Of a DNA stretch of 64,000 nt, positions 4,955 to 33,690 are shown piece after piece (within the stretch, counting starts at the first letter, position 1; each line of letters begins with the position of its first letter). The notes under the pieces are model-generated. The model was not told where the DNA came from. It saw nothing but the letters and a program-made list of their open reading frames with translations, and did no database searches. The DNA lies in NCBI GenBank assembly GCA_965203055.1, contig OZ241863.1, positions 832,001-896,000 on the forward strand, in the 5' to 3' direction. This DNA comes from Spirochaetia bacterium. GTDB taxonomy: Bacteria > Spirochaetota > Spirochaetia > SZUA-6 > Bin103. The position numbers were made by a program, and so were the translations under genes.

Positions 4955-4973
4955 CTGTCGTTGCCGGCTGCCG

Positions 4974-13630: not shown

Positions 13631-13754
13631 GACCGGATTATGCTGCTACGTCACCAACGGGTAAACCACGTCCTGCCGGGCGCCCAATGGTCGGACGCCC
13701 GGCAGGGCAGTGGTTTGACAAATCGTCGTTTTGATGCTCAGATATCCGTGATTC

Positions 13755-14962
13755 ATGTGGATCGAACGGCTCATCGGGGAGCGGATCGAGCGGCTGGCGG
13801 CGGCGTTTCCGGCGGTCATCGTGACCGGCGCCCGGCAGACCGGGAAGACCTCGCTCGTCAAGCGGCTGTTCCGGAGCATCGCTACGTCAGCCTCGATCTG
13901 CGGCTGCTGGCCGAGCAGGCCGAGGAGGCGCCGGAGAGCTTTCTGCGCGATCATCCGCCGCCGGTGGTGATCGACGAGGTGCAGTACGCGCCCGGCCTGT
14001 TCCGGCATCTGAAGGTGGCGATCGATGGCGACCGCCGCCGCAAGGGGTCGTTCATCCTGACCGGCTCGCAGAAATTCACCTCGATGCGCGCCGTCAGCGA
14101 CAGCTTGGCCGGCCGGTGCGCGGTGGTCAGCCTGCCCGGCCTGTGCGTGGAGGAGATCCGCGCCGCGGGCCGGCAGCCGGAGACTGCGCCGTCCGGCGAC
14201 CTGCTGGCGCGCGGCGGCTTTCCCGAGCTGTGGGCGGAGCCCGCGATTTCGGCCCGCGAGTTCTATCAGAGCTACGTCAGCACCTACCTGGAGCGCGACC
14301 TGCGGCAGGTCGTCAACGTCGGCAGCCTGCGCGACTTCGAGCGCTTCCTGCGCGCCGGCGCGGTCCGCGCCGGCCAGTTGCTGAACAAGTCCAACCTGGC
14401 GCGCGACGTCGGCGTTGCCCAGACCACCGCGAGCCACTGGTTGTCGGCGCTGGAGGCGGGCAATCAGGTGACCTTGCTGGAACCGTTCTTTGCTAACGTC
14501 GGCAAGCGGCTGGTGAAGGCGCCCAAGCTCTACTTCAACGACACCGGGCTGCTGTGCTTCCTGCTGGGCGTGAACGCCGGCGACCTGGGGCCGTCGCCGC
14601 TCACCGGCGCGATATGGGAAAACTTCGTGTTTACCGAGCTGCGCACGTGGCTCGATCTGGCGCGCCCGGAGTGGTCGTTGTGGTATTACCGCGATCAACA
14701 GAACCGGGAAGCCGACTTCCTCATCCAGGGGCCGTATGAATCGATCCGGCTGCTCGACGCCAAGTGGACCGAGAGCCCGCGCCGGCCGGCGTTCGCGCAA
14801 CTCGACAAGGTCGCCGCGGTGGTCGGGAGCGCGCCGGGCGTGGCCCGCACCGAAGTTGCCATCGCCGGCCGCATGGCGGGCGTCCGCCAACTCGGAGCGA
14901 ACCGGTGCGCCGTGTCGGCCTACGCCATTGCCGACTACCTGCGTCCCCGCGAGAACACGTGA
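13755..14962 (+). pseudogene. AAA_14 ATPase + DUF4143 protein, split by a single-base frameshift near 13870 (real or sequencing error)
   Basis: GARQTGKT in one frame continues as PEHRYVSLD...DEVQ...LTGS...GGFP...KAPKLYFNDTG...EADF in another; adding one C to ttccggag restores the ORF. Confidence 0.8.
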
Positions 14963-15016: not shown

Positions 15017-16330
15017 CTATTCGGCTTGCTCGACAGGATCGAACGCCGGCGGCGAGGTCGATACGTCGCGCACGTCGATCCTGCCGGCAATCACGTCGGC
15101 AATCAGGCGCGTACGGAATTCGTCCAACAGTGCGATCAGCTTTCGTGTAGCTGCAATTTGATGACGGATGAGTCGTTCGGTGTGGTCGAGGAAGCGAACG
15201 ATCGTGGTCTGTTCGGAAAGAGGCGGGACCGGGAGCGAGCAATTGCCATATTTCTCTCCATTGAGATTTTCGATGGTGGATGAAATCGCGTTTACCCTCA
15301 AGAAGTTGCCGAATGACCGTGTTTTCGTGAACCAGAACAGATACTTGGGCAGCACGACGCTCTTATCCGCTATGAATCGAACCAGGTATCCGGCATATGC
15401 GCACGGACCATGTTTCTTGCTATTGTAGATGAAGGAACGTCCAATGGTGCCACTTCTAGAGATCAGTAGATCTCCGTCCGACAGAATATAGTCCTCTACC
15501 AAATCAGCAGGAACGAACACTCCTTCGTCTCTGAGTTGTCCATCCTCCGTTATGTCGGTAGTCCGGAGAAAACGAACGCCGGCGTCCGCGTACGAACTTG
15601 CCGGCACGTTGGCCCCGTACAGCGCGGATCGAGAGCAGATCGACTTCAATCTGCGCACGGACCAATGCTTCGGAATCGTCCTCAGCCACTCGACACCGGA
15701 AGGTCGGTAGGCTGAGTACGGACGGCCGGTTCGCACCTCTATCTGGCCCGTGACGGCTTGATGGATGATGGCCTGCTTCTGCTCGGCGAGCAGTGCAATC
15801 AGCCTCTGCCTGGCGCGGATGTAGCGCTGGATGCGGTGGTCTGCGTGATCGAGGAAGCGGACAATAGCCTCTTGTTCAGAAAATCTCGGGATCGGCACGA
15901 CTCGCCGATAGGCTTCCTCGCGGTCGAGACCGGGTACCGCCGAATCTCTCGTTACGTCATCCAGCCTTAGCCAGCCAAGAAGAAAATAGAGCCAACGAAT
16001 GTGACCTGACGACCAACAGGGATCGACGAAGAACGTAGTGTCAATGGCGAATACGGGTGTAAGAGAGTAGTTTACCTTTCCAAAGGATCCCTTTCGACCG
16101 ACGATGATACAGGGAGCATTTGTGTTTGCTGCGTAATGAGAACCGACATATCCGTTTGATCCGAACACCGGTACGTTTCCTTTTCGACGATTTTCTTCGC
16201 TGAGAGAATCTCCATAAACCAATCGACAGATCCGCTTGAGACGTAGGACATCCCAATGCGCAGGTACCTTTCCCAGTGCTTCGACACCGGAGTCCTTCAT
16301 GTTCGGGTAGGGCTTGAGGTTGGCGGTCAT
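15017..16330 (-). CDS. hsdS: Type I R-M specificity subunit
   Basis: KDSGVE..GKVPAHW and SGVEWL..IPKHW repeats; two TRDs; PPLSEQ..IVRFLD conserved helices. Confidence 0.93.
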   Translation of the reverse strand: MTANLKPYPNMKDSGVEALGKVPAHWDVLRLKRICRLVYGDSLSEENRRKGNVPVFGSNGYVGSHYAANTNAPCIIVGRKGSFGKVNYSLTPVFAIDTTFFVDPCWSSGHIRWLYFLLGWLRLDDVTRDSAVPGLDREEAYRRVVPIPRFSEQEAIVRFLDHADHRIQRYIRARQRLIALLAEQKQAIIHQAVTGQIEVRTGRPYSAYRPSGVEWLRTIPKHWSVRRLKSICSRSALYGANVPASSYADAGVRFLRTTDITEDGQLRDEGVFVPADLVEDYILSDGDLLISRSGTIGRSFIYNSKKHGPCAYAGYLVRFIADKSVVLPKYLFWFTKTRSFGNFLRVNAISSTIENLNGEKYGNCSLPVPPLSEQTTIVRFLDHTERLIRHQIAATRKLIALLDEFRTRLIADVIAGRIDVRDVSTSPPAFDPVEQAE

Positions 16331-16379
16331 GGCTGAGAACCGCGGCGGTTTCTCATCAAACAAACGATCGGCGGCGGCG

Positions 16380-17848: not shown

Positions 17849-18184
17849 TCATCGAACGATCCTCCGCTCCCGGATGTCCTGCGCGGTGAACAGACGCTGC
17901 CGGACCGCGTCGATATGCTTCCTCAGAGGCCGGTAAGTTATCCCTTCATAGCTAAAGATACTCACCGACACGGACAGATTGCTCTCGATGAAGAGCGTCC
18001 TCAGGCGATCGATAGCGGCTTCCCTGACTGCTCCATGTATCACCAAGTCGATGTCGGAGTGGCTCCGGTGCTTGCCGGTGGCGCGCGATCCGAACAGATC
18101 GACCTGCGTAATCTCATCGTTGCATTCGGCCAGCACTGTGCGAATCGTTTCGAGATCTGCGTCAGAAATGCCGTGCTCAGCCAT
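17849..18184 (-). CDS. Minimal nucleotidyltransferase (MNT antitoxin)
   Basis: LFGSRATG..SDIDL motif; 111 aa; overlaps HEPN gene. Confidence 0.88.
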   Translation of the reverse strand: MAEHGISDADLETIRTVLAECNDEITQVDLFGSRATGKHRSHSDIDLVIHGAVREAAIDRLRTLFIESNLSVSVSIFSYEGITYRPLRKHIDAVRQRLFTAQDIRERRIVR

Positions 18185-18602
18185 GTTCCGTATCCTTCGC
18201 CATCAGGAAACGGTAGAGAGCTTCCATGCAGCATAGGTAGCGTTCCGCGACATCCTCAATAACGCGGTTGGCGGCCGAAGCGTCATAGGTATGGGACATT
18301 TTGTTGCGAGCGTCGAGCGCATCCATCCACGTCGGTCCATGCTCGGTAAGTTTGGCCTCGTAAGCCTTTCTGATGACGGCTCGAGGCGTGATTTGATCGA
18401 ACGCCACTCCCTCATGTTCCAGATAGTCCTTCATGGCCTTCCACGCCAGCTCCATGGCAACCTCGAATCTCTGAATCGCGCCTTCTTTCTCCAATTGATT
18501 CAGGCCGAACTCGTTCCTTTTGTCCATCGCCTCTCGCAGCAGTATCAGGGCGTTCTTGTAGCTGGCAAACCGATACTTCCAACGCGGCGTGGCATCGGCC
18601 AT
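18177..18602 (-). CDS. HEPN toxin (HI0074-family nucleotidyltransferase substrate-binding subunit)
   Basis: EGAIQRFE..ELAWK and RNKMSHTY (Rx4H) motifs; start MADATPRW at 18602. Confidence 0.88.
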   Translation of the reverse strand: MADATPRWKYRFASYKNALILLREAMDKRNEFGLNQLEKEGAIQRFEVAMELAWKAMKDYLEHEGVAFDQITPRAVIRKAYEAKLTEHGPTWMDALDARNKMSHTYDASAANRVIEDVAERYLCCMEALYRFLMAKDTEHG

Positions 18603-18607
18603 TGGTC

Positions 18608-20581
18608 TCACCTGCCGAGGATTGCGGTGAGCAGTCCGGCGGTCTCCTGTTCGACCGACAGGATGTCGGCGCGGATTTCTTCCAGGGTGCGCGCCGGCGG
18701 CGGCCGGTAGAAGTAGCGGGTGAAGCTGATCTCGTAGCCGATCTTCACGCTGTCGGCCCGGTACCAAGCGTCGGCCGCGTAGGGCAGCACCTCGCGCCGC
18801 AGGAAGGCGTCGATGCCGCCGGCCTCCTGCAGCGGGACCTGTTCGGTGTCGCGCAGGTCGGGGTCGGGTTCGTACTCGACCACCGCCGGCCGGCCCTTGA
18901 CGGTGGCCGCGAACCGGCCGCGCAGCGGGTCGGCGGCCGTGCCCCGCCGGTGAATCTTCCGGATCACCGGCGGCGCGCTCGCGCTGCGTTCGCCGCTCTC
19001 CTTCAGCTTCCTGATCTCGGCGGCCCGGTAGGCGCGGTCGGGGTCGGCGCCGGCGATGCGCAACGGGCGCTCGACCGTCACCTTTCGGTAGCCGAAGGCG
19101 GCGTTGTCGAAGATACGGCTCCGCTCGCTCTCCTCGAACGCCAGGAACGTGTCGCAGATGCGGGCGATGTCCTCCTCGCCTAGCTCGCACGTCTTCTTGC
19201 CCAGGTTCTTGCGCAACGGCCGGTGCCAACCGGTGGCGTCGATCAGCTGCACCTTGCCGCGCCGGCGCTCCGCCTTGCGGTTGCCGAGCACCCACACGTA
19301 GGTGGCGATGCCGGTGTTGTAGAACAGGTTGAGCGGCAGCGCGACGATCGCCTCCAGCCAGTCGTGCTCGATGATCCAGCGGCGGATGTTGCTCTCGCCC
19401 TGCCCGGCGTCGCCGGTGAACAGCGAGCTGCCGTTGTGCACCTCGGCGATGCGGCTGCCGAGCGGGGTGCCGCGCTTCATCTTGGCGAGCTTGTTGGCCA
19501 GGAACAGCATTTGCCCGTCGCTGGAGCGGGTCACCAGCGAGTACTCGGCATCGCCGCCGTGCTCGATCACCAAGCGCGGGTCGCTCATGCCGCCCTTGCC
19601 GCCCATGCGCTCCAGATCGGTCTTCCAGCTCTTGCCGTACGGCGGATTGGAGAGCATGAAGTCGAACTCGTGGGCCGGAAAGGCGTCGTTCGACAGCGTG
19701 GAGTGCTCGGGACCGCCGACGATGTTGTCGGCCGCCTCGCCTTCACCCTTCAGCAGCAGGTCGGCCTTGCAGATGGCGTAGGTCTCGGCGTTGATCTCCT
19801 GCCCGTACAGGTGGGTGGAGACCTCTTTGCCGTGCTCGGCGGCAAGCTGCCGCAGCGTCTCCTCGGCCACGGTCAGCATGCCGCCGGTGCCGCAGGCGCC
19901 GTCGTACAGCAGATAGGTGCCGGAGGTGATGCGGTCGGCGACCGGCAGGAAGATCAGCCTGGCCATCAGCGTCACGGCGTCGCGCGGCGTCCAGTGCTCG
20001 CCCGCCTCCTCGTTGTTCTCCTCGTTGAAGCGGCGCACCAGCTCCTCGAAGATGGTGCCCATGCCGTGGTTGTCGAGGCCGGGCTGCTCGACCGAGCCGT
20101 CGTCGCGGCGCACCGGGGCGGGGCTCAGGTTGACGTCGGAGGCGGTGAGCTTCTCGATCAGCGTGCCGAGCGCGTCGGCGCGTGACAGGCGCGGGATCTG
20201 GTTGCGGAACTCGAAGTTGTCGAGGATGTCCTGCACGTTGGGCGAGAACCCGTCGAGCCACGCCTCGAAGTCGGCGGTGAGTTGCCGGCGGTTGGCGCGG
20301 GCGCGCAGGTCGCGCAACGAGAACGGCGAGGTGTTGTAGAACCCCTGCCCGGCGGCTTGGCGCAACGCCGCGTCCTGCTCGATCACGCCGGCGGCGTCGA
20401 GGGCGGCCTTCATGTCCAGCACCGCCTGCTTGCTGTCCTCCAGCACCGCGTCGAGGCGGCGCAGCACGGTCATCGGCAGGATCACGTCGCGGTACTTGCC
20501 GCGCACGTACAGGTCGCGCAGCACGTCGTCGGCGATGCCCCAGATGTAGTTCGCAATCCAGTTCAGGTCGCCGTTGCTCAT
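18608..20581 (-). CDS. hsdM: Type I R-M m6A methyltransferase
   Basis: IWGIADDVLR start; GEHWTPR; DGACGTGGML; NPPY. Confidence 0.95.
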   Translation of the reverse strand: MSNGDLNWIANYIWGIADDVLRDLYVRGKYRDVILPMTVLRRLDAVLEDSKQAVLDMKAALDAAGVIEQDAALRQAAGQGFYNTSPFSLRDLRARANRRQLTADFEAWLDGFSPNVQDILDNFEFRNQIPRLSRADALGTLIEKLTASDVNLSPAPVRRDDGSVEQPGLDNHGMGTIFEELVRRFNEENNEEAGEHWTPRDAVTLMARLIFLPVADRITSGTYLLYDGACGTGGMLTVAEETLRQLAAEHGKEVSTHLYGQEINAETYAICKADLLLKGEGEAADNIVGGPEHSTLSNDAFPAHEFDFMLSNPPYGKSWKTDLERMGGKGGMSDPRLVIEHGGDAEYSLVTRSSDGQMLFLANKLAKMKRGTPLGSRIAEVHNGSSLFTGDAGQGESNIRRWIIEHDWLEAIVALPLNLFYNTGIATYVWVLGNRKAERRRGKVQLIDATGWHRPLRKNLGKKTCELGEEDIARICDTFLAFEESERSRIFDNAAFGYRKVTVERPLRIAGADPDRAYRAAEIRKLKESGERSASAPPVIRKIHRRGTAADPLRGRFAATVKGRPAVVEYEPDPDLRDTEQVPLQEAGGIDAFLRREVLPYAADAWYRADSVKIGYEISFTRYFYRPPPARTLEEIRADILSVEQETAGLLTAILGR

Positions 20582-20585
20582 TGAC

Positions 20586-22331
20586 CTACGCCGCTTCGCA
20601 ATGCACCAGCTCCCAGCCGTGGAAGACCAGCGCCAGTCCGATGAAGCGCACGCCCGGGTACTGCCGCGCCAAGCGCTCGTCCGCCAGATAGCGCGCCAAC
20701 TGCGCGTGCGCCTGCTCGGCCGCGGCCGCGACCGCCGCCTGATCGACCGTCGCAGAGCGTTTGAAGTACTTGAGCTCGAGCAGGTAGCCGAGCCGCAGGT
20801 GCGGGTAGCGGGCCACGAGCGGTTCCAGCGCGATGTCGGCATGCCCCTTGCCCAGCTCCGCCTCCGAGCGGAACTCGTAGTAGTTGGTCACGCTCAGGTA
20901 GGCGCCCAGGAACCCCTGGATCACCTTCTCCCCGGCGATATAGTCCCGAATGCCCGTCTGCCGCGCGATCGCCTCGCTCAGATACTCGAACACCGGCCGC
21001 CACTCGCCTTCGTTCGCCATCCGGATCAGCAACTGCTCGACGCGAAACAGGTTGACCGAGAAGACATCCACGTCGCGGTAGCCGTCGCGCAGAAAGCCGT
21101 ACATCAGCCGCTTCACGGTCTGGTTGGGAATCGCCAGCCGCGGTATGTCCTGCGTCACGCCGCGGATGCTCAACAGCCCGAAGAAGTGCAGCAGCGAGAG
21201 GAAGTTTTCCGGCTCGGCAAGCCGCTCCAGCGGAAAGCTGGGCTGGATCTGGGTGGTGACCTGCTCCTCCCCGATCACGTCCCGCAGCCGATCGAAGTTG
21301 CCGTTCAAGCGCCGGCCGACCACCAGCAGGTGGCGCAGCTTGCCGTAGTCGATGCGCACGTTGGTGTCGATCAGGTACCTGGGCACCTGCCGGTTGGGGA
21401 TGGAGTGGTCCAGATAGTAGAGCACCATGTCGGAGTTGTAGAGGTCGGTGGCCGCTTCCTCGGAGAAGCGGTAGCCGTTGTACCATTCGCCCATGATGCC
21501 CAGCGCGGTCTCGACATCCTGGTTGAAGACGCCCAGGTCGCGGTAGGTCTCCACCAGATGCCGCACCTCCGCCGCGGTGAAGCCGACCATCTCGTTGAAG
21601 TCCGGTTCCAGGCTGATGTTCTTGCCGATGTTGAAGCCGCTGGTGACGTCGTCCATGGTGACCGGCGACACGCCGGTGATGAACAGGCGTTCGAGGCCGC
21701 CGCCGGCGCGGTCGGCGCCGCCCTTGAGGGCGGCGAAGAAGTTGCGGTAGAAGCCGCCGCCGTGGGTAAAGGAGTGGTACGCCTCGGCGCCGTGGTAGGC
21801 CAGCACGGTGTTGGCGAAGTTGTCGTACTCGTCGATCAGCACGTACAGCGGGATGTCGTGGTCGCCCGCGTACCGGAACAGCGCGGAAAGCCGCTCGGCG
21901 ATGGACGGCGGCGCGAGGATGCGCTGCAATGCCGCTTCGGGAAACAGGTCGGGATGCCGTTCCAGCGTCCCCCGCAGTTCGATGAAGCAGTAGCCTTCGA
22001 AGCGCTGTTCGAGCGTTTCGAGCTTGTCGTCGACCATCGAGAAGTTGAAGCGCAGGGTGACGTAGCGGCTGCGTTCCTCGGTCGGGCTGCGCCCGATGTC
22101 GGTGCCGGCGAACGTGGCGTCGAAGCGGTCGGCCCAGAAGCGGTCGTAGTAGCACTCCAGCAGCGCCACCCACAGCGACTTGCCGAAGCGGCGCGGGCGG
22201 ATCAGGAAGGCGTAGCGCTTCTGCTCCAGGCGCCGCAGGAAGCGGGTCTTGTCGACGTACAGCCACCGGTTCAAGCGGATGCGGCTGAATGACGCCTCGC
22301 CGTAGGGAATGCGCGGGTAGTCGGGGACCAT
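20586..22331 (-). CDS. AAA-ATPase-like + C-terminal PD-(D/E)XK (PDDEXK_9-type) protein
   Basis: YVDKT, RPRRFGKS, IDEYD, FITGV, IPN, GHADI...LELK. Confidence 0.88.
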   Translation of the reverse strand: MVPDYPRIPYGEASFSRIRLNRWLYVDKTRFLRRLEQKRYAFLIRPRRFGKSLWVALLECYYDRFWADRFDATFAGTDIGRSPTEERSRYVTLRFNFSMVDDKLETLEQRFEGYCFIELRGTLERHPDLFPEAALQRILAPPSIAERLSALFRYAGDHDIPLYVLIDEYDNFANTVLAYHGAEAYHSFTHGGGFYRNFFAALKGGADRAGGGLERLFITGVSPVTMDDVTSGFNIGKNISLEPDFNEMVGFTAAEVRHLVETYRDLGVFNQDVETALGIMGEWYNGYRFSEEAATDLYNSDMVLYYLDHSIPNRQVPRYLIDTNVRIDYGKLRHLLVVGRRLNGNFDRLRDVIGEEQVTTQIQPSFPLERLAEPENFLSLLHFFGLLSIRGVTQDIPRLAIPNQTVKRLMYGFLRDGYRDVDVFSVNLFRVEQLLIRMANEGEWRPVFEYLSEAIARQTGIRDYIAGEKVIQGFLGAYLSVTNYYEFRSEAELGKGHADIALEPLVARYPHLRLGYLLELKYFKRSATVDQAAVAAAAEQAHAQLARYLADERLARQYPGVRFIGLALVFHGWELVHCEAA

Positions 22332-22393
22332 GGTCACTGCTACCGCCGGAACGCATCGCCTCGGGCCGAAATCGGTCATCTCAATCCCGCAAT

Positions 22394-25300
22394 CTACAGT
22401 GTAACCGCTTCATAAAGTAACCGCTCCGCTCTGTGTACGCGCGCTCTCTTCAAAATAAATTTTTCGACATGTTGTGACATCTCAAGTAATTCTCTCTCCG
22501 AGAGCTCTCTCATAGTAGAGTCCTGAGATAGCCCAAGTGAGTTCCACGATGTTCCAAGGACAATTCCGCTCGCTTCGGATAGAATGCTTCGGTCATGTAT
22601 CGGTGATTTCCCAGAGGTCTCCAGTCCTACGACAACAATTTCGGCTTTCGGTGGAGTCTGGTCAGAGATGGTCTTCCATCCAGATCTGTAGGATTCAGAC
22701 AGCGACCTGATCGCACTTCGTTGATGACAATGTCGGCTGGTAAGCACAGTTATCTCAATATCTGGAACCGCTGATTGTATCAACATAAGTAGCTTTAGAT
22801 CAGTCGGTCGAAAATACTGATCACAAATGTAAAGATGACCGGAAGCCGATCGCCGCAACCACCGACTCAAAAAATCCTCCGCACGCCTTCTTTCACCGCT
22901 CCGTATGACCAAAGTCCCGTCGCTCGGTGTTACACGTAACGCTGACGCAGGTCGTCGGACGTTGATTGAAGCGCTTGTGGCCGCTAGTTCCACCAACTCT
23001 GTAGCGCTCATTGTGCCCTCAAAAATCAAGCGAATCACGGAACGAGAATCGCGAGACCCGGAGGACCGGCGTGCCACATTTTCAATGGCCCAAGCCAGAA
23101 TCGGAAACCCGTCCCGAAGCGCACACCGTCCGGCATACCGCAGCGCCGGCCTGAGTTGGTCCATAGCCAAAGTAGTCATTCGTCCAGCATTTAGAGAGCC
23201 AAGAGCAAGCCAGGCCGAACTAGGTAGATCTGGATAACCTGACTCCGATCCTTCCCATGATTCCAGTCCATCGACAATCGCTTTCTTTTTGCGCAAAATA
23301 TCCACGCGACGTTTCATCTCCTCACGAGCCATCGTACGGGCCGGATCGTCGTCCATAAGTGGAACAAGTGAAGCAGCGAAGTCCGCATCGATCTTAAAGG
23401 CCGTGTCTATTATCTCTCTGGTAATACGGCCTCCTGAGCTATCCCCAGCAGATTGGAATCCGGTGATGGCCTCTCTAAGACATTCTCGCGCAAGACGTGG
23501 GCTCCTCCGAACCATCATCCCTGCCAAATCGTTCAACCGCGCGAGTCGATCATAATTACAAGGGATCGCCCGAGCGTCCTCGATCGCATCTTCAAACAAC
23601 GACTCGACACGGTCCGACATCGAAGCCGGAAGTATCTTGCCGATTATGGCCGCTACATATGAACTGTCGGATTTGTTCGGAATGCGCTTTGCACGGTCTA
23701 TGGCTGTGTCCCACGATTTTCTAGGAGCCCGTACAATTCTGAGAAGCTGTGCGTCACTTGCGATCTTGAAACCGTCATGTTGGATATTGTCTTGATCTGG
23801 AAACTTCCGACCAGCAATCTCATTTATCATACTAACGAGGCGCGCCTGCTGCTGCCGAGAAAACCTGTTATTCGGGCCCTTGGACACAAGCGTATCTGCA
23901 AGCGCCACGATCAATGAATACACCAAACTATCGAGGTGAATCTCGCCTGCGAGTTCGGCTACGTCAATAGCATCCTGAAATGTGATCGAATAACCGCTCT
24001 CGTGTTCCTCGTATGGATCCGATGGAATGTGTTTCCCGAGTGTAAATTTGGCGCACGTCATAAGCGCGGAGTCTCTGTCGTGGCTCTCCAACGCACTAAA
24101 GGACTGCATTGCCGTAGTTTTGTGACTCCGAAACAGTGCTGGTGAAACAGCTATGATAGTGCTGCTCTTTGTCGGCCCTTCGGGTATTGAGTCTAACAGC
24201 GGCGTAACGTGTTCATATACTATTCGGTCGCCCTCATCAGAACGAGATTTTAGGTATAAGTGCATAGCTAGTTCGCCCCAAAGTTGGGCCTGCATAGAAG
24301 TATTGGGAAGTCGCTCTATTAGCTCTCCCAATCTTGATATGTCATTCTCGGCATCATACCCGTGACCGAGCTGGCCTGCGAAAGCGCGCATTGAAAGCCG
24401 CAGACACGCTTGAAAGGTCCACTCAGACGAGAAAGAAGATAGCGCCATCGTTCTGCGACTTTCGTCTGCGTCGCGGAGATATTCTTTTGCTTGTGCCGGA
24501 AGCCAGTTCGCAAATGCGCGAGCGAGACGAAATCGCACGTCGATTTCGATCCAACCGGAATCGAGATCGTTAAGTGTACGTTTGATCTGGCGAGATAGAT
24601 CGGTCTGTATATCTTCTGCATATATACCCTTTTCTGACAACGCATAGAGCAAACATAGCACGCGACACTTTTCTGTCGGACCAGAAACGGAGAAAAAGAC
24701 GTCACGGAATATCTCAAATCCACGCTCTGCAACGGAGGTCTTCCCCTCCGAAGCCTCTCGCACCAGATACTCGGCAACCGAAGCGGCGGCATGATCTCGA
24801 GAGTCGGACATATGGAGTAGTCCACACGCGTTACGAACAGCACTAAGGTCAACGCGTACCGTCTCGTTTTCCAGCGTGGCGTCTATCGCAAGTAGTCGAG
24901 CCTCCTCGCGACGGGATAACGTGTTTAGACGCCCTGCAAGAGCAAAGGCTTGATTCGGGTCGAAGGAGGCAAGCGCGTCTATGACTCTACGAGTAACATC
25001 GACTTGATACGCAGTATGTGCCAATAAGTCCGAAATTGATGCATTCATCGCTTCAATAGAAAGAGACTTTAGATGTTCTCTATCCTCAATTTCTCCGGAC
25101 GAGTCGATTGTCTGTAATGTCGATAGTAGCCAAGCAAAGCAACTCGATTTCGTCGAACTATCTATCAACTCGTCAATCGTCAGATAGACCTCTACTAGTC
25201 GGTTAGCACACGCTTCCTTATCGTATAGCGATTCTGCGAACGCGAGGTTCAACTGCATCCTCACTGCTTCTTCCGTCGGTCCTTGATCCTCAACAGTTGT

Positions 25301-27301
25301 ACGCTGTCCGTCGAACGATCTCACCAAAGATCTCGCCATCACCGAGTCTTCTACATGTGTCAATGAGGTTGAGAGCTCTCGAAGAACCCGCACGTTAGGG
25401 GCGTAATCAGTAGCCTCGACGATAGTCTCTAGCCCATACGCCGCTACGTCTACTGCATCGCCTCTCTTAGAATGCTCTAGAGACCACTTTCTCAAAACGT
25501 ACAGTTTGTCGGAGGTGGTCTCTAGTCTCTTAGCCTCCGCAATGACTTCCGCCGCTGTTTGAACGTTGCCGAACAGAGTAGAAGTATATCCTCGCAACTT
25601 TGGATCCTTGATACGTTTCCTAATTTTCTCAAGGTCGTCTTTATCATCATTTAGCCTGATTTGGCGTACCGCGGTCGCTATCGACAGTCGCAAGTACGCT
25701 ATATCCAGTTCGTTCTCGTGGTCGTTTTCTTGAGAACTGCGTTCAATCAACTTGATCGATAGATCCGGGAAACAAGGAAAAAGGTCAGCCGCAATGTCGA
25801 TCGCTTTATCATTAAACCCTAATGTGTTAACTTGGCCAAAAAGTAGCTTAATTTGATCTACAATATCGTCGCTAACTGGCATTCCTAATTCCTTCTCGCA
25901 ACGAGCTATTACTGCAAGCAGATGAAGCCGATCCTCTCGTAGTGGACAGTTGGCCGCAAGCGACAGGGCCTTTTCAATCTGATCAGTGGTAACTAACGCT
26001 TCGACCTCAGAACGGGATACTTGTGAGGTCTCGATCTCCCTGATCGCGCTACTTCCCAATCCGAAGCGTATGAGAGAACCATCATCACGACGCTGAGTAG
26101 ATACGTCTATACCAATCCGGAATTGTTTCCGAAGAGGAGCAAAAGACTCGGCCTTCTTCAAAGCATTTGAAAAATAGTCTGGTGAGAGAAAGGAAATAAC
26201 CTCCTTGGATCGACCTGACTCCTGAAGGTAAGTGGGAAGGCGATCGGCAGCATCGCTGCCTCCCGTGTCCAAAAGATGACCAACAAGCTTACCGATGACG
26301 TCTCCCTTACGATTCGACAACCTGTTGACCGCAAAGTCTGCGAAAGTGTGAGAGATAAACGACACATAGGAGGCGCTATCCAGTTGAAGAAATGGTATGT
26401 TTCGTAATCGTGACAAAAGCGACCTATCGTCAGATTTCAGAATTGCCGAAAGAGAATCAATAGTCAATCGGTGGCGCGAATGCGCAATTATCGCTACCAT
26501 TTCCTCAGAACGTTCGTCGGTTACGGCGTTCCGCCACTCCTGTTCAAAGAGACCTTTAATGCTCAGGCCTTGTAGATGCTCAAGGTCTATACCAGCAAGC
26601 AAGCTGCGCCGAATGCTTGACAGATTGGCAGGCACACCTTTTCTACACTCCTGGTAGACCTGCTTGACATCAGCGTCGGTTAGACTGAGATCGACTAGAT
26701 ACTGACGGACTTCCATCAGCGAAAAGTTGACAGTCTGAATGATCTTCGTTCGTCGACTGTTCGCAAGTCGAGATGGAAGCGACTTAGCCTCGCCAGATAC
26801 GATCACCGGGAAGCCTTGACCAATCGGGAGAAGGTTGGTAACTTCGCTCATTATAACGTCGTCGGTGATGTCCGTTAGTCCATCCAAGAGGAAGTAGTAA
26901 GTTGCGGCTCCTCGACGACGTTTGAGATTGTGGATGATTCTTTGCAGGACACCGTCTCCTGCTCGTTCTGGTGTGGATGATTTTCTTGGTTCCAATATAG
27001 ACAGTATCTGCGCAGTATAGTCGCGTATTAGCGTGGAATGGTCATAGTTATAGCGTGGATCAGGTGTAACGAACGAAGAAATCGATCTCGTCGGATAACG
27101 TCTTGCAAATTGCGATAGAAGTGTTGTCTTGCCGGTACCCTGGTCTCCTTCAAGTACAAGTAAATCAACCGGTCCAGAGAACATTCTTTCAAATGTGTCG
27201 AGTAGGTGATCGCGGTCAATTTCACAATCGGGCTGATTTGGAAATGTAGCGCACAATTCATGGAGCTTCGGTTGTTGAACCATCTGGTAGTCGTGCATCA
27301 T
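22394..27301 (-). CDS. 1635-aa P-loop NTPase (STAND-like) + helical repeats + C-terminal PLD-like domain; candidate defence protein
   Basis: GDQGTGKT Walker A; FLLDG Walker B; long helical region; ICDQYF...IHDRSIL...GTSWNSLG; GC clearly below flanks. Confidence 0.75.
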   Translation of the reverse strand: MMHDYQMVQQPKLHELCATFPNQPDCEIDRDHLLDTFERMFSGPVDLLVLEGDQGTGKTTLLSQFARRYPTRSISSFVTPDPRYNYDHSTLIRDYTAQILSILEPRKSSTPERAGDGVLQRIIHNLKRRRGAATYYFLLDGLTDITDDVIMSEVTNLLPIGQGFPVIVSGEAKSLPSRLANSRRTKIIQTVNFSLMEVRQYLVDLSLTDADVKQVYQECRKGVPANLSSIRRSLLAGIDLEHLQGLSIKGLFEQEWRNAVTDERSEEMVAIIAHSRHRLTIDSLSAILKSDDRSLLSRLRNIPFLQLDSASYVSFISHTFADFAVNRLSNRKGDVIGKLVGHLLDTGGSDAADRLPTYLQESGRSKEVISFLSPDYFSNALKKAESFAPLRKQFRIGIDVSTQRRDDGSLIRFGLGSSAIREIETSQVSRSEVEALVTTDQIEKALSLAANCPLREDRLHLLAVIARCEKELGMPVSDDIVDQIKLLFGQVNTLGFNDKAIDIAADLFPCFPDLSIKLIERSSQENDHENELDIAYLRLSIATAVRQIRLNDDKDDLEKIRKRIKDPKLRGYTSTLFGNVQTAAEVIAEAKRLETTSDKLYVLRKWSLEHSKRGDAVDVAAYGLETIVEATDYAPNVRVLRELSTSLTHVEDSVMARSLVRSFDGQRTTVEDQGPTEEAVRMQLNLAFAESLYDKEACANRLVEVYLTIDELIDSSTKSSCFAWLLSTLQTIDSSGEIEDREHLKSLSIEAMNASISDLLAHTAYQVDVTRRVIDALASFDPNQAFALAGRLNTLSRREEARLLAIDATLENETVRVDLSAVRNACGLLHMSDSRDHAAASVAEYLVREASEGKTSVAERGFEIFRDVFFSVSGPTEKCRVLCLLYALSEKGIYAEDIQTDLSRQIKRTLNDLDSGWIEIDVRFRLARAFANWLPAQAKEYLRDADESRRTMALSSFSSEWTFQACLRLSMRAFAGQLGHGYDAENDISRLGELIERLPNTSMQAQLWGELAMHLYLKSRSDEGDRIVYEHVTPLLDSIPEGPTKSSTIIAVSPALFRSHKTTAMQSFSALESHDRDSALMTCAKFTLGKHIPSDPYEEHESGYSITFQDAIDVAELAGEIHLDSLVYSLIVALADTLVSKGPNNRFSRQQQARLVSMINEIAGRKFPDQDNIQHDGFKIASDAQLLRIVRAPRKSWDTAIDRAKRIPNKSDSSYVAAIIGKILPASMSDRVESLFEDAIEDARAIPCNYDRLARLNDLAGMMVRRSPRLARECLREAITGFQSAGDSSGGRITREIIDTAFKIDADFAASLVPLMDDDPARTMAREEMKRRVDILRKKKAIVDGLESWEGSESGYPDLPSSAWLALGSLNAGRMTTLAMDQLRPALRYAGRCALRDGFPILAWAIENVARRSSGSRDSRSVIRLIFEGTMSATELVELAATSASINVRRPASALRVTPSDGTLVIRSGERRRAEDFLSRWLRRSASGHLYICDQYFRPTDLKLLMLIQSAVPDIEITVLTSRHCHQRSAIRSLSESYRSGWKTISDQTPPKAEIVVVGLETSGKSPIHDRSILSEASGIVLGTSWNSLGLSQDSTMRELSERELLEMSQHVEKFILKRARVHRAERLLYEAVTL

Positions 27302-27499
27302 CTTTCTCTTGTTAGGGCCTTGCGATTATGTAAGTCGCCCAATATCCACATTCTACGGAACAAGACCGCCATGCCAGGATCGGAGTGTGGCTATTCGGCA
27401 CAGAGTCTGCCATTGAATCTGCGAATCTGAGGGTCGGCTATCCGCGGCGGCGGTACGGGGAGGTGGAATCCACGCAGGTGCGGCAATCGAAGCACCGAT

Positions 27500-27758
27500 A
27501 CAGCGCACTATATGTACTGTCACGTACTGCCCGCTCCTCGTCCAGGTATAGCAACGAGTCCCGCTCCGTCAACGGCGGCGGCGGTCGGTAACGGTACGCT
27601 GTCTGGCTGCGTGCGCCACGCAAACCCACTCCGGAAGGGGGGCTATCATCGCGACCGGCGAGGTCCGATCGAGAACGGTCACCGACTCTCCCGCCCGCAC
27701 CCCGGCGCAACTCAGCGCTCAGCGTGGCCTTGAGGCTGGCGGTGGTGATGGTACGCAT
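27500..27758 (-). pseudogene. Frameshifted Phd/YefM-type antitoxin remnant
   Basis: MRTITTASLKATLSAELRR then, after removing one G, VRAGESVTVLDRTSPVAMIAP; DSLLYLDEER tail in another frame. Confidence 0.55.
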
Positions 27759-27827
27759 GTGACCATTACATGACCAACAGGTGATCCACGTCAAGCGGCA
27801 GGTGTGCTCCTGTCCCTGCCGGCGCAG

Positions 27828-29350
27828 GGGCGCACTTCCAATTTGTAGGTAGGCCCAAATAGAGAAGCCCTCCCAGCGACAGGTGATGTAACATCAGGCC
27901 GTCACTGGGAGGGCAACATATGTGTGATTCATTGGTAACCGAGATTCTCAACTACTGCAAGGCCACCTGTGGTCTCGAACTGGGCCGCGCTAGCGGTCCC
28001 CACGACCTGTTGCGGGCAGAACTGAGTCTCCTCAAGTGCTTGGTGCGCCTGTGCCGCGCCGCCATGGTGGAGTGGTTCAAGGAACTGGGCCGCGATTACC
28101 GCGGCGCCACGGTCCAGCGCAACGGGGTGTCGTATCGGTTTGTCGGCCACCGCTCCAAGACCCTGCACGGACTGTTCGGGACGGTACCCTACGAACGGGC
28201 CTACTACGCCAGCGGTAGCGGCCAGGGCTGGGCGCCGTTGGATGAGCGGCTCGGCATCAAGCGCGGCCATACGCCGGGCTGCCAGTACTTTCTGAGTCAG
28301 TTCGTAGCGCGCCAGGCGCACGCAGAGAGTCTGCGGCAGTTTCACGAGGTGTTCCGCGCCGACGGCGGGGAGCTGGTGTCGGAGAAGAAGGCGTTCACGA
28401 TGGTGCAGGAGGTAACGGAGGGGTTGGAACGGCAGCGCCAGCAGGAGGTGGACAACTACCAGCAGACTGCGGCGGGGCCGGAGCTGCACGAGCCGATTGG
28501 CGGGACGGTGGCGGTATGCATCGACGCGGGGAAGGTGCCGGTGCGCGGCAAGGAGCGGGTAGATGATGCCGGGAAGAAGCGCTACGAGCGGGAGTACCGG
28601 GACGCCAAGGTGGCGGTGGTGGCGGCGGTGGAGTGGGACGCTGAGGAGCAGGAGGCGCAGTGCAGCAGCAAGCCGAGCTACGTGGCGGCGAGCGAGCATG
28701 CCGACCAGTTCTTCCCGCGCATCGAAGTGGAGCTGAAACGGCGCTGCGGCGAGGGGGCGGCGCGGCAACTGGTAGTGCTGGCCGACGGGGCGGGATGGAT
28801 TTGGGATCGGGCGGAGACCTGGGCGGCAGGGGGGCTGCGGGTGTGGTACATCCTGGATTTCTGGCACGCCTGCGAGCATCTCGCGGAGGCGAGTCGGAGC
28901 GTCTACGGGGAGAGGAGCAAGCAGGCAGAGGAATGCTTTCGGAGGTGGCGGACGATGCTGCGCGGCAGTCGGGCGGGGGAAGTGATAGAGGAGCTGGAGG
29001 AGTTGCGCGACGGCGGGGGGTTGAGTGCCCGGCAGCGGCACGAGGTGCAGGGGGAGATCAACTACTTGAAGAGCAACCAGGGACGGATGGACTACCGGCG
29101 GTACCGGCGGGAGGGGCTGCCGATCGGCAGTGGGGCGGTGGAGAGTACGTGCAAGAACATGGTGGGGGCGCGGCTGAAGGGGAGCGGGATGATCTGGTCG
29201 TTGGGAGGGGCGCAGGGGATGCTGCAGCTCTGCACCTCGGTGAAGAGCGGGCGGTTCAAAAGGGACTACGCGAGCCTGCTGTCCGCCTCGGTGCCGCAGG
29301 AGGCCCAGCCACAGGCCGCCTGACGCTACCTACGTTTTGGAAGTGCGCCC
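27828..29350 (+). mobile_element. ISKra4/ISLre2-like insertion sequence
   Basis: TIRs GGGCGCACTTCCAATTTGTAGGTAG vs GGGCGCACTTCCAAAACGTAGGTAG; direct repeat CGGCGCAG at 27820-27827 and 29351-29358. Confidence 0.9.
27920..29323 (+). CDS. ISKra4-family DDE transposase
   Basis: CIDAGKV, LADGAGWI, LDFWHACEH, IGSGAVES motifs. Confidence 0.88.
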   Translation: MCDSLVTEILNYCKATCGLELGRASGPHDLLRAELSLLKCLVRLCRAAMVEWFKELGRDYRGATVQRNGVSYRFVGHRSKTLHGLFGTVPYERAYYASGSGQGWAPLDERLGIKRGHTPGCQYFLSQFVARQAHAESLRQFHEVFRADGGELVSEKKAFTMVQEVTEGLERQRQQEVDNYQQTAAGPELHEPIGGTVAVCIDAGKVPVRGKERVDDAGKKRYEREYRDAKVAVVAAVEWDAEEQEAQCSSKPSYVAASEHADQFFPRIEVELKRRCGEGAARQLVVLADGAGWIWDRAETWAAGGLRVWYILDFWHACEHLAEASRSVYGERSKQAEECFRRWRTMLRGSRAGEVIEELEELRDGGGLSARQRHEVQGEINYLKSNQGRMDYRRYRREGLPIGSGAVESTCKNMVGARLKGSGMIWSLGGAQGMLQLCTSVKSGRFKRDYASLLSASVPQEAQPQAA

Positions 29351-29358
29351 CGGCGCAG

Positions 29359-29457
29359 GAGGTTGCTGCCGGTGCCGCATCCGGACTAAGGATTGCCAAA
29401 CGATACCAGGTCCGCGCGGCGCGCGCGTTCCTGCAACGGATCGGAGTAACTCCATGA
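29359..29457 (+). pseudogene. hicA: 3' remnant of HicA toxin
   Basis: PHP..AKRYQVRAARAFLQRIGVTP* ending in an ATGA overlap with hicB. Confidence 0.6.
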
Positions 29458-29726
29458 GCAGCACCATGACCTACAAAGGCTATTCGGCGCGGATCGAATA
29501 TGACGACACGGACGGCATCTTCACGGGACGGATCGCGGGCATTCGCGATGGCGCAGGATTTCACGCCGAATCGGTGGGCGCGTTGCGGGCCGCCTTTCAC
29601 GAGGCGGTCGATGATTACCTCGACACCTGCGGCAGGATCGGAAGAGAGCCGCAGAAGGCCTACGCCGACCGCGAGGTTCCCGGCCGCGCTGCGAGCGAGC
29701 GCCGGTCGCCCGACCCCGCAGGGTGA
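29454..29726 (+). pseudogene. hicB: HicB antitoxin, apparently lacking the C-terminal RHH domain
   Basis: MTYKGYSARIEYD...FHEAVDDYL...EPQKAY, then unrelated tail. Confidence 0.7.
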
Positions 29727-31944: not shown

Positions 31945-32835
31945 TTGAAACGCACCGGCGCGCCGCTGCTGCGCTACCTCAACCGGCACCGGTTCCAGTA
32001 TCTGTCGCTGGCGCCGGCCCTGTTCCTGATCTTCATGGTGTCGTTCTATCCCCTGGGGTACACGATCTACCTGTCGTTCTTCGAGGGCGGGCTGGCGCGG
32101 CTGCAGTACGTCGGGCTCGGCAACTACGCGTGGCTGCTGCGGGACGACTTCTTCTGGGAGTCGGCGCGCATCTCGGTGGTCTACACCTGCTTCACCGTGG
32201 CGCTGACCCTGGCGGCCAGTCTGGGGATGGGCATCCTGCTGGCCCAGCCGGAGCGGGGCAATCAGGTGTTCAAGTACCTCGCCATCCTGCCGTGGATCAT
32301 CTCCGCGGTGGTGGCGGGGATCCTGTGGAAGTGGATCCTGAGCGCCGAGTTCGGGGCCTTGAACGAGGCGCTGCTGCTGGTCGGACTGCAGCGGGTGAAC
32401 TGGCTCGGCAGACCCAACTCGGCGATGACCATGATCATCGCCGGCGGAGTGTGGAAGACGCTGCCGTTCACCGGCCTGCTGTTCTACGCCGCGGTGCTGT
32501 CGCTGCCGCAGGAGATCTACGAATCCGCGCTGACCGACGGCGCCGGCCCGCTGCAGCGCTTCGGGCGCCTCACCTTACCGCTGTTGCGGCCTGCCATTTT
32601 GGTGGTGCTGGTGATCCTCACCATCAACTTCTTCAACGAACTGACCATGCCGCTGACCATCACCAACGGCGGTCCCTCACGCGCCACCACGGCGCTGCCG
32701 CTGTACATGTGGCGGGTGGCGTTCCGCTACACCCGCCTGGGGCTCGGCTCGGTGATCGCCCTGGTGCTGTTCGCGGTGAACATCGGCCTTGCGGTCGGCT
32801 ACATCAAGCTGATCAAGGCGGAGAACCTGTATTGA
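31945..32835 (+). CDS. Sugar ABC permease (MalF-like)
   Basis: VGLGNY, IYESALTDGA, TNGGP motifs. Confidence 0.9.
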   Translation: MKRTGAPLLRYLNRHRFQYLSLAPALFLIFMVSFYPLGYTIYLSFFEGGLARLQYVGLGNYAWLLRDDFFWESARISVVYTCFTVALTLAASLGMGILLAQPERGNQVFKYLAILPWIISAVVAGILWKWILSAEFGALNEALLLVGLQRVNWLGRPNSAMTMIIAGGVWKTLPFTGLLFYAAVLSLPQEIYESALTDGAGPLQRFGRLTLPLLRPAILVVLVILTINFFNELTMPLTITNGGPSRATTALPLYMWRVAFRYTRLGLGSVIALVLFAVNIGLAVGYIKLIKAENLY

Positions 32836-32856
32836 CGGGGCGCGGGGTCGGCTAGG

Positions 32857-33690
32857 ATGCACCGCAGCACCGCCCTTACCGTGCTGGTCTACGCGCTGAT
32901 CGTGCTGGTCTCGCTGTGGTCGCTGTTTCCGCTGCTGTGGGGCGTCTCCACCTCGCTCAAGGTCGACCAGGACATCTTCACCTCGCCGCCGCGCTGGATT
33001 CCGGCGCGGGCTACTCTGGAGCACTACTACAGCACCTTCATCGTCGGGCAGTTCTACCGCAACGTGCTCAACAGCCTGTTCATCTCCGGGGCGGCGACCG
33101 CCATCTCCCTGGCCGGCGGGGTGCTGGCCGCCTACTCGCTGGCGCGCTTCCGGTTCGCCGGCAACAGCGTGATTCTGGTGCTGATCCTGGCCTCGATGAC
33201 GGTGCCGGGGCTCACCAACCTGATCCCGATCTACGTGATGCTGGCCAAGCTCAAGCTGTTGAGCACCTACACCGGCCTGATCCTGATCTACGGCGGCTGG
33301 GGCATCCCGTGGACGGTGTGGATCATGCGCGGGTTCTTCCAGTCGCTGCCGCGCGAGCTGGAGGACGCGGCCCGGGTGGATGGCTGCTCGCGGCTGCAGA
33401 CCCTGCTGCGCGTCATCCTGCCGCTCAGCGCGCCGGGCATCATCAGCACCACGATCTTCCTGTTCCTCAACAACTGGAACGAATACATCGCGGCGCGCAC
33501 CTACCTGCAGGCGGCGGTGGAGAAGCACACCGCGCCGGTGAAGATCTTCTTCGCCATGCACTCCACGCTGACCCAGAACTGGGGCGGCCTCAACGCCATG
33601 TCGTTCATCTCCTACCTGCCGGTGCTGCTGCTGTTCTCCTTCCTGTCCAAGTACTTCATCGCCGGCCTCACCACCGGTTCCTCACGCTGA
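32857..33690 (+). CDS. Sugar ABC permease (MalG-like)
   Basis: LPRELEDAARVDG; NWNEY; TM segments. Confidence 0.92.
   Translation: MHRSTALTVLVYALIVLVSLWSLFPLLWGVSTSLKVDQDIFTSPPRWIPARATLEHYYSTFIVGQFYRNVLNSLFISGAATAISLAGGVLAAYSLARFRFAGNSVILVLILASMTVPGLTNLIPIYVMLAKLKLLSTYTGLILIYGGWGIPWTVWIMRGFFQSLPRELEDAARVDGCSRLQTLLRVILPLSAPGIISTTIFLFLNNWNEYIAARTYLQAAVEKHTAPVKIFFAMHSTLTQNWGGLNAMSFISYLPVLLLFSFLSKYFIAGLTTGSSR

Follow-up and report, generated by a model that had tools for sequence, protein, structure and literature searches.

A STAND protein with a C-terminal PLD fold of the HxR type: a candidate single-gene immune receptor on mobile DNA

What does a large gene of low GC content do at one end of a defense island in a Spirochaetia bacterium? 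The gene lies in a stretch of 64,000 nucleotides (nt) of contig OZ241863.1 (assembly GCA_965203055.1, positions 832,001 to 896,000), hereafter the window, and occupies positions 22394..27301 on the minus strand, where an ATG start opens a frame of 1635 amino acids (aa) and a stop codon. We call it the STAND-PLD gene, for the signal transduction ATPase with numerous domains (STAND) predicted at the N terminus of its product and the phospholipase D (PLD) fold predicted at the C terminus. The open reading frame (ORF) is listed with its translation, is uninterrupted, and has full-length collinear homologues at identities down to 26-27%; it is a real and intact gene. We lean toward the view that its product is an immune receptor of the STAND/NLR type, self-contained, horizontally mobile, and built back to front, in which a ligand would gate the pairing of PLD half-sites of the HxR form. 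Directly established below are the three-part anatomy of the protein, its two folds as modeled, the invariance of its site residues, its single-gene nature, its mobility, and its neighborhoods.

The two ends of the protein and the region between them

The protein begins as STAND receptors do. An AlphaFold2 (AF2) model of residues 1-460 (built from 37 aligned homologues; mean pLDDT, 82.7), Foldseek, and Pfam together assign residues 1-330 (26312..27301, minus strand) to a STAND NTPase module of nucleotide-binding domain, helical domain, and winged helix. When the model was compared with the PDB, the best Foldseek matches were an archaeal STAND-TPR protein (6mfv, 9e-11), Avs3 (8dgc, 1.4e-10), and MalT (8bob, 2e-10), and further matches included CED-4, Apaf-1 (1z6t and 3sfz), and animal NLRPs (E values of 1e-10 to 1e-6; TM scores of at most 0.62). 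By Pfam, only generic P-loop families scored above their cut-offs (AAA_16 and AAA_22, both 4e-8). Against the NACHT profile (PF05729) the window copy reached 14.1 bits, with the cut-off at 26.7, and a precomputed NACHT match was present in 14 of 60 homologues. The nucleotide-binding motifs, placed by script, are intact. Walker A (GDQGTGKT, residues 52-59; 27125..27148, minus strand) has G57 and T59 invariant and G52, G55, and K58 conserved at 90% or more, and Walker B (YYFLLDGLTD, residues 135-144; 26870..26899, minus strand) has D140 and G141 invariant, in sets of 25 and 38 aligned family members. In the model, the first NTPase strand begins at residue 47, with no separate domain before it; thus, the protein has a STAND NTPase without an N-terminal effector. 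A first-pass annotation of the window, made from its letters alone, had placed Walker A about 50 aa from the N terminus and reasoned that no room was left for such an effector, and the model agrees. We conclude that residues 1-330 have the fold of a STAND/NLR-type NTPase, as modeled.

What the protein ends in is a PLD fold. Residues 1456-1635 (22397..22936, minus strand) were assigned to it by an AF2 model of residues 1440-1635 (pLDDT, 90.3; pTM, 0.84), in which disorder is confined to the first 19 residues. Foldseek matched the model to chains of the PLD superfamily, among them a PLD (7e0m, 3.1e-6) and NucT (3.8e-6). VIA-align, which is independent of Foldseek, compared the model with 48,161 representative chains and returned Z scores of 12.9 for FAM83A, 12.8 for NucT, 12.4 for FAM83B, 12.1 for Nuc, 11.2 for Zucchini, 10.7 for SauUSI, 9.7 for MITD1, and 9.1 for BfiI. 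In all, 24 PLD-superfamily chains scored 8.2 to 12.9, and the best unrelated chain scored 4.9. We conclude that the predicted fold of the end domain is that of PLD beyond reasonable doubt. The earlier reading of HDR..GxSxN as the HxK-variant pattern of a PLD fold was therefore sound, with the difference that the motif is fixed in the family as HxR; a non-PLD C terminus, which would have spoken against that reading, was found by none of AF2, Foldseek, and VIA-align.

The predicted active site is nearly invariant. Motifs were counted over 286 distinct end domains of the family, with totals of 283 to 285 at each position. The HxK-equivalent motif is H1569-D1570-R1571 (22589..22597, minus strand): the histidine and the arginine are each present in 284 of 284 domains, the aspartate in 270 of 284, and the lysine of canonical HxK in none. 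The GxSxN part of the motif lies in GTSWNSLG (residues 1583-1590; 22532..22555, minus strand), where G1583 is found in 282 of 285 domains, S1585 in 282 of 283, N1587 in 227 of 285, and G1590 in 283 of 285. A conserved acidic residue of the predicted site is D1494 (22820..22822, minus strand) of the ICDxYF motif, which reads ICDQYF at residues 1492-1497 of the window copy; the position is aspartate in 281 of 285 domains and glutamate in the other 4. Position 1576, the site of the canonical HKD aspartate, is variable (E, K, N, D, or R). Thus, the family departs from the canonical motif HxK(x)4D(x)6G(S/T)xN by an arginine for lysine throughout and by a variable aspartate site, and it mostly retains GxSxN. 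The register of HDR..GxSxN was confirmed by a weak hmmsearch match to phosphatidylserine synthase, which aligns HDRWW...GTSFN with HFKGF...GASLN.

Neither the full-length profile nor the end-domain profile found anything significant in the PDB, and the best match of the right fold was again phosphatidylserine synthase (E of 0.15). Pfam returned no family at an E of 10 or less for residues 1101-1635 of the window copy. Across 18 family end domains, Pfam PLDc_2 matched 5 (best E, 0.0054).

Between the two ends lie residues 331-1455 (22937..26311, minus strand), of which the AF2 model reaches as far as residue 460. The region is strongly conserved and contains invariant polar residues such as H1175, N1209, D1212, D1299, D1305, and D1319. 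Residues 301-1367 matched no Pfam family at an E of 10 or less, and sequence searches of the PDB found no match for the middle region. The first-pass annotation had described some 1100 aa of helical repeat-like sequence here. That description was not borne out for residues 461-1455: profile self-comparison of residues 440-1450 found no internal repeats (best off-diagonal probability, 8%), and the ESM Atlas offered weak TPR-like leads, all below threshold (<0.9). We presume from its position that the middle region is the sensor.

Mobility, distribution, and neighborhoods

How the gene came to the window is indicated by its base composition. The GC fraction is 0.494 within the STAND-PLD gene and 0.661 in the remaining window, and when read in 200-nt steps the drop runs from ~22400 to ~27400 and coincides with both ends of the ORF. 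The first-pass annotation was right that the gene is low in GC relative to its flanks; its range of 38-45%, however, holds for the lowest 60-nt lines only, as the median line is at 0.48 and a quarter of the lines do not exceed 0.45.

The same site exists without the gene in a related population. The stretch is present in sponge and marine metagenome runs of several studies, and the contigs of four runs were compared with positions 20500-29500 of the window. Runs from four studies contain the STAND-PLD gene at an identity of 96-100%. In one sponge-metagenome run (X7), a contig of 787 nt with a depth of 17.9 connects 22340 with 27558; the shorter side of this joint comprises 81 letters. The contig lacks a block of 5217 nt (22341..27557), which comprises the gene with 256 nt upstream and 53 nt downstream, and carries 40 other letters instead. 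This empty site is represented by a single contig at a threshold of 90%, and the contig comes from a related strain or species rather than the same clone, because an intergenic piece of it diverges by ~12%. The ends of the missing block fall where the GC steps fall. Together, the GC step at the ends of the ORF and the contig that joins 22340 to 27558 uphold the earlier proposal that the gene was recently acquired. No convincing target-site duplication or terminal inverted repeats were found at the ends of 22341..27557. Contig depths (2-7 over the gene, 20-30 over the flanks, and hundreds over the AAA/PDDEXK gene beyond its 3' end) are not comparable, because the flanks hold a multicopy transposase and a multicopy gene family.

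Two further features lie at the upstream edge. A UPF0236 (ISLre2-like) transposase gene (27920-29323, plus strand) is skipped by a joint from 27802 to 29394 in contigs of two runs: the X7 contig that carries the empty site (depth of 17.9, 104 letters on the shorter side) and, weakly, a contig of X3 (21 letters). As the joint skips 27803-29393, the element is present in some related strains and absent from others. An ORF of 118 aa (27438-27794, minus strand) has no family match and spans the junction of the acquired block at 27557/27558; it is probably not a gene, since the junction of the empty site falls within it.

Whether the gene carries its own promoter was judged by consensus only. A promoter-like site, CTGGCA-16-TAGAAT, lies 49 nt upstream of the ATG (27350..27377, minus strand), and such sites are no commoner in the region than chance predicts (6 found versus 4.4 +/- 2.3 expected). 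On the 3' side of the gene, inspection found no terminator-like site.

The gene belongs to a large family that is collinear over its whole length. A word-indexed search found 60 relatives, mostly of 1615-1667 aa, collinear over 97-100% of the query at identities down to 26-27%, all of them unnamed. When the end domain alone was searched against 1.84 billion representatives, 905 matches were found, 689 of them at 1e-10 or below, and in all of the best 150 of the 905 it is the extreme C-terminal domain. Among longer proteins, a profile search recovered only the STAND-PLD family, under names such as "hypothetical protein" and, once, "MoxR-like ATPase." One full-length profile covers all 324 collected proteins and leaves at most 120 residues uncovered at either end; 180 of the 324 are at least 1500 aa long, and the rest are fragments that align collinearly. 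No model of PADLOC v2, Pfam, or NCBIfam recognizes the family as such, AAA_16 and AAA_22 being generic. A full-length match to a described system, which would have counted against the first-pass reading, was found neither with PADLOC v2 and NCBIfam nor in the profile search of longer proteins.

The family is spread across phyla and sits on mobile DNA. We found 47 loci in GTDB species genomes, from Latescibacterota, Nitrospinota, Desulfobacterota-type "Deltaproteobacteria," Chloroflexota, Acidobacteriota, Armatimonadota, Verrucomicrobiota, Kiritimatiellae, Gammaproteobacteria, and Bacillota. Proteins encoded in Latescibacterota and Nitrospinota genomes share 63% identity with the window protein. 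In every locus whose flanks were long enough for comparison (30 of 30), the gene is lower in GC than its flanks, by at least 3 points in 26 of them (median, -7.9 points). Among 72,556 plasmid records, 5 carried a family member, annotated as "hypothetical" or "ATP-binding protein"; 50,697 phage records contained none. On a plasmid of Aromatoleum aromaticum EbN1 the family gene lies amid insertion sequence elements and integrases, and on a Bacillus cereus plasmid it adjoins a gene for a TIR-domain protein.

For neighborhoods, we kept the 31 of the 47 loci that held a near-full-length match, dropped 16 partial or weak ones, and called ORFs greedily. No cluster of neighbors recurred in more than 3 of the 31 loci, and so the STAND-PLD gene is a unit of its own, as the first-pass annotation had supposed. 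Of the 114 ORFs within two genes of it, 22 matched PADLOC families at an E of 1e-10 or less, spread over 12 loci. When TniQ and a generic Ser/Thr kinase were left out, 10 of 31 loci had a defense neighbor within two genes. These neighbors were Type I restriction-modification (R-M) genes (L006, L007, and L014), Gabija GajA/GajB (L041), a GajB-like helicase (L019), DrmD/DrmMI-like genes of DISARM-like character (L024), DrmMI-like, HNH, and GajA-like genes (L033), a DUF1156 methylase with a PLD-helicase (L035), a methylase with SIR2 (L037), and HerA/mad8 (L002). Genes for integrases, transposases, recombinases, or Tn7 proteins lay within two genes in 9 of 31 loci (L003, L004, L007, L008, L015, L024, L031, L036, and L041), so that 16 of 31 had a defense or a mobile-element neighbor. 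A published survey of STAND proteins gives 0.0153 as the null value for a gene picked at random to be no more than 5 kb from a DefenseFinder system (methods, in the available part of PMC13581612/bioRxiv). At that value the probability of 10 or more defense neighbors in 31 loci is 2e-11, and at a generous null value of 0.10 it is 6e-4; both are indicative only, as the null was borrowed from a survey with differing methods. With that reservation, the association with defense genes and mobile elements that had been predicted is seen in the family.

Several loci deserve separate mention. In Clostridium homopropionicum (L031) and Gracilibacillus dipsosauri (L041), the family gene lies directly beside Tn7-like tnsD/tniQ genes (and tniB), and in the latter it also adjoins a complete Gabija pair; both copies look like defense cargo of Tn7-like transposons. 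In 4 of the 31 loci (L005, L013, L017, and L023), the family gene is split into at least two ORFs, and in L013 a piece of 1060 aa and one of 689 aa have ~1.1 kb of other ORFs between them (13115-14219); the split genes are either decayed copies or errors in metagenome-assembled genomes. In Propionispira arboris, an ORF of 1647 aa lies ~5 kb upstream of the family gene (L037:6-4949, plus strand). Paralogy was ruled out (BLASTP E of 3.2), and the ORF had no PADLOC match.

Relatives, mechanism, and alternatives

How the family relates to known defense proteins differs between its two ends. At the N terminus the likeness is to Avs (AVAST): both are one-gene STAND NTPases with a very large non-NTPase region and a defense-island context, and Avs3 was the second-best Foldseek match of the N-terminal model. 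The Avs effector is N terminal, however, whereas in the STAND-PLD protein the effector-like domain comes last, after an NTPase that begins as early as residue 30-50. Avs family models of PADLOC and NCBIfam gave only a local and nonsignificant match of Avs1b (E of 1.2e-3; residues 245-342, 98 residues). The likeness to bacterial NACHT (bNACHT) proteins is a Walker B of the form hhhhDG(L)xD, and to our knowledge none of the bNACHT proteins that have been tested belongs to the STAND-PLD family. Some bacterial NACHT proteins are described as carrying effectors at the extreme C terminus, presumed to end up where N-terminal effectors do, in the available part of a preprint (bioRxiv 10.1101/2022.07.19.500537) whose main text contains neither "PLD" nor "phospholipase." The reversed domain order of the first-pass annotation thus holds as an arrangement, NTPase first and effector-like domain last, but is less of a novelty than it seemed.

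At the C terminus the closest tie is to Juno. The NCBIfam model NF040700, for the N-terminal domain of VPA1262, matched 16 of 18 family end domains (best E, 4.7e-12) over positions ~300-455 of its 478, with at most 45 bits against a cut-off of 80. NF040699, the model of the full VPA1262 family (1026 positions), matched 4 of the 18, with at best 23.5 bits over ~100 positions against a cut-off of 325. The window copy itself matched neither model and is tied to Juno through its family only. According to the available part of a preprint, the VPA1262 proteins have been renamed Juno and protect against phages (bioRxiv 10.64898/2026.08.01.741415), which makes Juno the only experimentally validated relative; like the STAND-PLD gene, it is a single gene on mobile islands. 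The two differ in that the Juno family is described by a 1026-position profile, with no STAND NTPase mentioned in that part of the preprint, and the PLD-like core alone is shared. This likeness comes from profile matches rather than from direct alignment with a Juno sequence. A search with NF040700 and NF040699 of the genome at hand, of 401 sampled genomes of one class, and of 14 controls returned one sub-threshold match of NF040700, in Bacteroides thetaiotaomicron. Sequence statistics support a tie between the STAND-PLD end domain and the Juno core.

An HxR motif also occurs elsewhere. BrxL of BREX type 1, Menshen NsnC PB-PLD1, and MITD1 MIT_C share with the end domain the fold and a site in which an early strand is followed by an acidic residue (I-x-D-P-Y) and a late strand is preceded by H-x-R, and the domains of BrxL and NsnC belong to defense systems and are predicted nucleases. 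For NsnC PB-PLD1, the available text of PMC12065111 reports an Asp/Glu after strand 2 and HDR before strand 5 and likens the domain to MITD1 MIT_C and to many BrxL C termini. For BrxL, that of PMC12839542 reports HKD variants in which a Lys-to-Arg change gives "HRD" in 1030 of 2913 proteins, predicted to be active DNases. BrxL-type MIT_C domains that we took from 7 genome loci read ITDPYI/IEDPYI ... HARH/HDRE. A specific tie to MIT_C was tried and rejected: profile-profile comparison (hhalign) with the 7 BrxL-type domains gave a probability of 1.3% (E of 0.04) over the N-terminal half only, Pfam MIT_C matched none of 18 family members at an E of 1 or less, and the ESM Atlas gave leads only. 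MITD1 also lies structurally below the Nuc-type nucleases (Z of 9.7 versus 12-13). The tie to MIT_C is a likeness of motif and fold only.

The structural neighbors that are enzymes are single-motif PLD nucleases: Nuc (1bys), NucT (6ehi), Zucchini (4ggj), BfiI (2c1l), and SauUSI (7clg), with Z scores of 9.1 to 12.8 and one HKD-type half-site per domain. Such nucleases pair two domains to build one active site. They differ from the end domain in having HxK rather than HxR and a conserved aspartate four residues on, which is missing in the STAND-PLD family; they are 7-13% identical to it in sequence, and none is fused to a STAND NTPase. Full-text literature searches, with supplements covered in part, turned up no account of a STAND protein that ends in a PLD domain, and the main text of Kaur et al. 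2020 contains neither PLD nor HKD. Seven family accessions were absent from the available supplements of the 2026 Nature STAND paper on Avs7-21 (PMC13581612), the largest tables lying outside the comparison, and the STAND-PLD family may be one of the 589 clades of that survey. One-gene STAND defense receptors are already known as a kind, and the literature mentions bacterial NACHT proteins whose effector is C terminal; what PADLOC v2, Pfam, and NCBIfam do not recognize is the STAND-PLD family, with the conserved middle region and HxR PLD end domain of its members.

How might such a protein act? STAND receptors oligomerize on ligand binding and activate their effectors by proximity, and PDB entry 8dgc is, by its title, Avs3 bound to terminase. 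In the resting state of the STAND-PLD protein, the NTPase would be closed and the PLD domain kept apart or masked. A molecule of a phage or other mobile element might then bind the middle region, open the NTPase, and allow nucleotide exchange and oligomerization. Oligomerization could pair two single-motif PLD domains so that two H-x-R/G-x-S-x-N half-sites form one active site. The paired site would cut phosphodiester bonds, most likely of DNA, and either the infection would be stopped or the cell would be killed. We consider this ligand-gated switch the most economical model, because it combines STAND oligomerization, the two-domain sites of PLD enzymes, the C-terminal effectors of NACHT proteins, and the anatomy of the protein. 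The trigger, the oligomerization, the catalysis, the substrate, and the protective effect are all proposed by us from sequence, from models, and by analogy.

Several points weigh against such a receptor. The catalytic lysine is always arginine in the family, and Lys-to-Arg mutants of classical PLDs are inactive and used as dead enzymes. The HKD aspartate is not kept at position 1576, and the window copy matches neither NF040700 nor any Pfam PLD model. Noncatalytic PLD folds are among the nearest structures (FAM83A and FAM83B at Z of 12.9 and 12.4; MITD1 at 9.7), and the fold of MITD1 is described as membrane binding in the available part of PMC6015221. The PLD domain lies ~1100 residues past the NTPase, and the model leaves unaccounted for how the domains are brought together. 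The middle region is unusually conserved and repeat free, so that a role as a plain sensor may be doubtful. Finally, 15 of 31 loci have neither a defense nor a mobile-element gene within two genes, and the neighborhood statistics lack a matched control set.

The first of these points leads to the alternative that survives best, though we think it unlikely: a STAND protein of defense or conflict whose HxR PLD fold is not an enzyme and instead binds a membrane lipid, a nucleic acid phosphate, or a partner, or only dimerizes. Harmful output would then come either from another part of the protein, such as the conserved polar motifs within residues 1150-1420, or from some protein of the host. The fixed arginine, the presence of FAM83A/B and MITD1 among the structural neighbors, the membrane-binding role of MITD1, and the many invariant polar residues of no known family in the middle region would all fit. 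An invariant histidine, which is the nucleophile in PLD enzymes, together with GxSxN and an acidic residue, fits a catalytic site better, however. Moreover, NucT, Nuc, Zucchini, and SauUSI score as high as or above MITD1, and an HxR site is predicted to be active in both BrxL and Menshen (predictions only, in the available parts of PMC12839542 and PMC12065111). Nuclease activity of the end domain is thus suggested by motif and model, with the K-to-R change and the noncatalytic neighbors FAM83 and MITD1 leaving room for either outcome.

A role outside defense is improbable. The protein could be a MalT-like signaling or regulatory STAND ATPase, or a housekeeping phosphodiesterase, carried on mobile DNA; the NTPase has MalT as one of its closest structural matches, all neighbors in 15 of 31 loci are metabolic or unannotated, and the family is absent from the 50,697 phage records and from PADLOC v2. 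On the other hand, Pfam found no DNA-binding output domain in the full-length protein or its subregions. The patchy distribution across phyla, with 63% identity to the Latescibacterota and Nitrospinota proteins, a GC content low against that of every host, neighbors from Gabija, DISARM-like, R-M, SIR2, and Tn7 systems, and an end domain akin to the Juno core also argue against it. Least of all do we credit a nonautonomous protein that works with the AAA-ATPase_like/PD-(D/E)XK gene and the Type I R-M genes as a multigene system, which seems very improbable: these neighbors in the window are co-oriented, 15 nt apart, with no terminator-like site after the STAND-PLD gene, and Type I R-M genes also lie within two genes in L006, L007, and L014, but each neighbor family is shared by at most 3 of 31 loci, the GC of the AAA/PDDEXK_9 gene is that of the host (~0.64 versus 0.49), and the contig that lacks the block continues from 22340 into the start of that gene (81 letters), so that the two are separable.

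Returning to the receptor with paired PLD half-sites, we extend it only tentatively. The gene may be the founding example of an unnamed, cross-phylum, one-gene antiphage system in which a STAND switch controls a catalytically active HxR PLD enzyme. One ancient effector module would be common to it, Juno, a third of BrxL proteins, Menshen PB-PLD1, and perhaps eukaryotic MITD1, and the middle region would be a new module of recognition or a second enzymatic one rather than a TPR-like sensor. An active HxR site would run contrary to what Lys-to-Arg mutants of classical PLDs suggest. If the family does protect against phages, it would add a widespread NLR-like receptor whose effector sits at the opposite end of the protein, and it would provide a test of how STAND oligomerization can switch on a C-terminal enzyme. 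It would also offer a tractable, switchable context for the question of catalysis and substrate in HxR PLD domains, with bearing on Juno, BrxL of BREX, and Menshen and, by extension, on human MITD1. The environmental phyla in which the family is common (Chloroflexota, Acidobacteriota, Desulfobacterota, and others) are poorly represented in current defense catalogues.

The defense island in the window

The STAND-PLD gene stands at one end of a defense island of ~20 kb on the minus strand, bracketed by ABC-transporter permease genes at 4052-5963 and 31945-33690. Starting 15 nt after its stop codon is a gene for a protein with AAA-ATPase_like and PDDEXK_9 domains (20586-22379, minus strand). The first-pass annotation had put the STAND-PLD gene directly upstream of an R-M locus; the genes are indeed co-oriented, but this gene intervenes. 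In sponge-metagenome runs its contig depths range from hundreds to ~1500, with many short joints, and it therefore belongs to a multicopy and variable gene family of sponge communities.

The Type I R-M genes are hsdM (18608-20842), hsdS (15017-16363), and hsdR (7479-10505), all on the minus strand, and other genes lie between them. Between hsdM and hsdS, an MNT nucleotidyltransferase gene (17849-18184, minus strand) and an overlapping gene for a HEPN-type partner ("NTase_sub_bind"; from 18177, minus strand) form a pair that resembles a toxin-antitoxin system (17849-18600). The ORF of the partner, 18177-19295, overlaps hsdM and has its HEPN-type domain in the last ~130 aa only. Between hsdS and hsdR lie an AAA_14/DUF4143 ATPase gene (13322-14962, plus strand) and two ORFs of the ABC-three-component (ABC-3C) conflict-system type, one with CTD10 (12458-13405, minus strand) and one with DUF2326 and CTD10 (10516-12624, minus strand), which together span 10516-13405. 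Within the same operon, between hsdS and the MNT/HEPN pair, is a cytochrome P450 gene (16380-17852, minus strand; Pfam p450, 3.7e-45), an odd passenger for a defense island.

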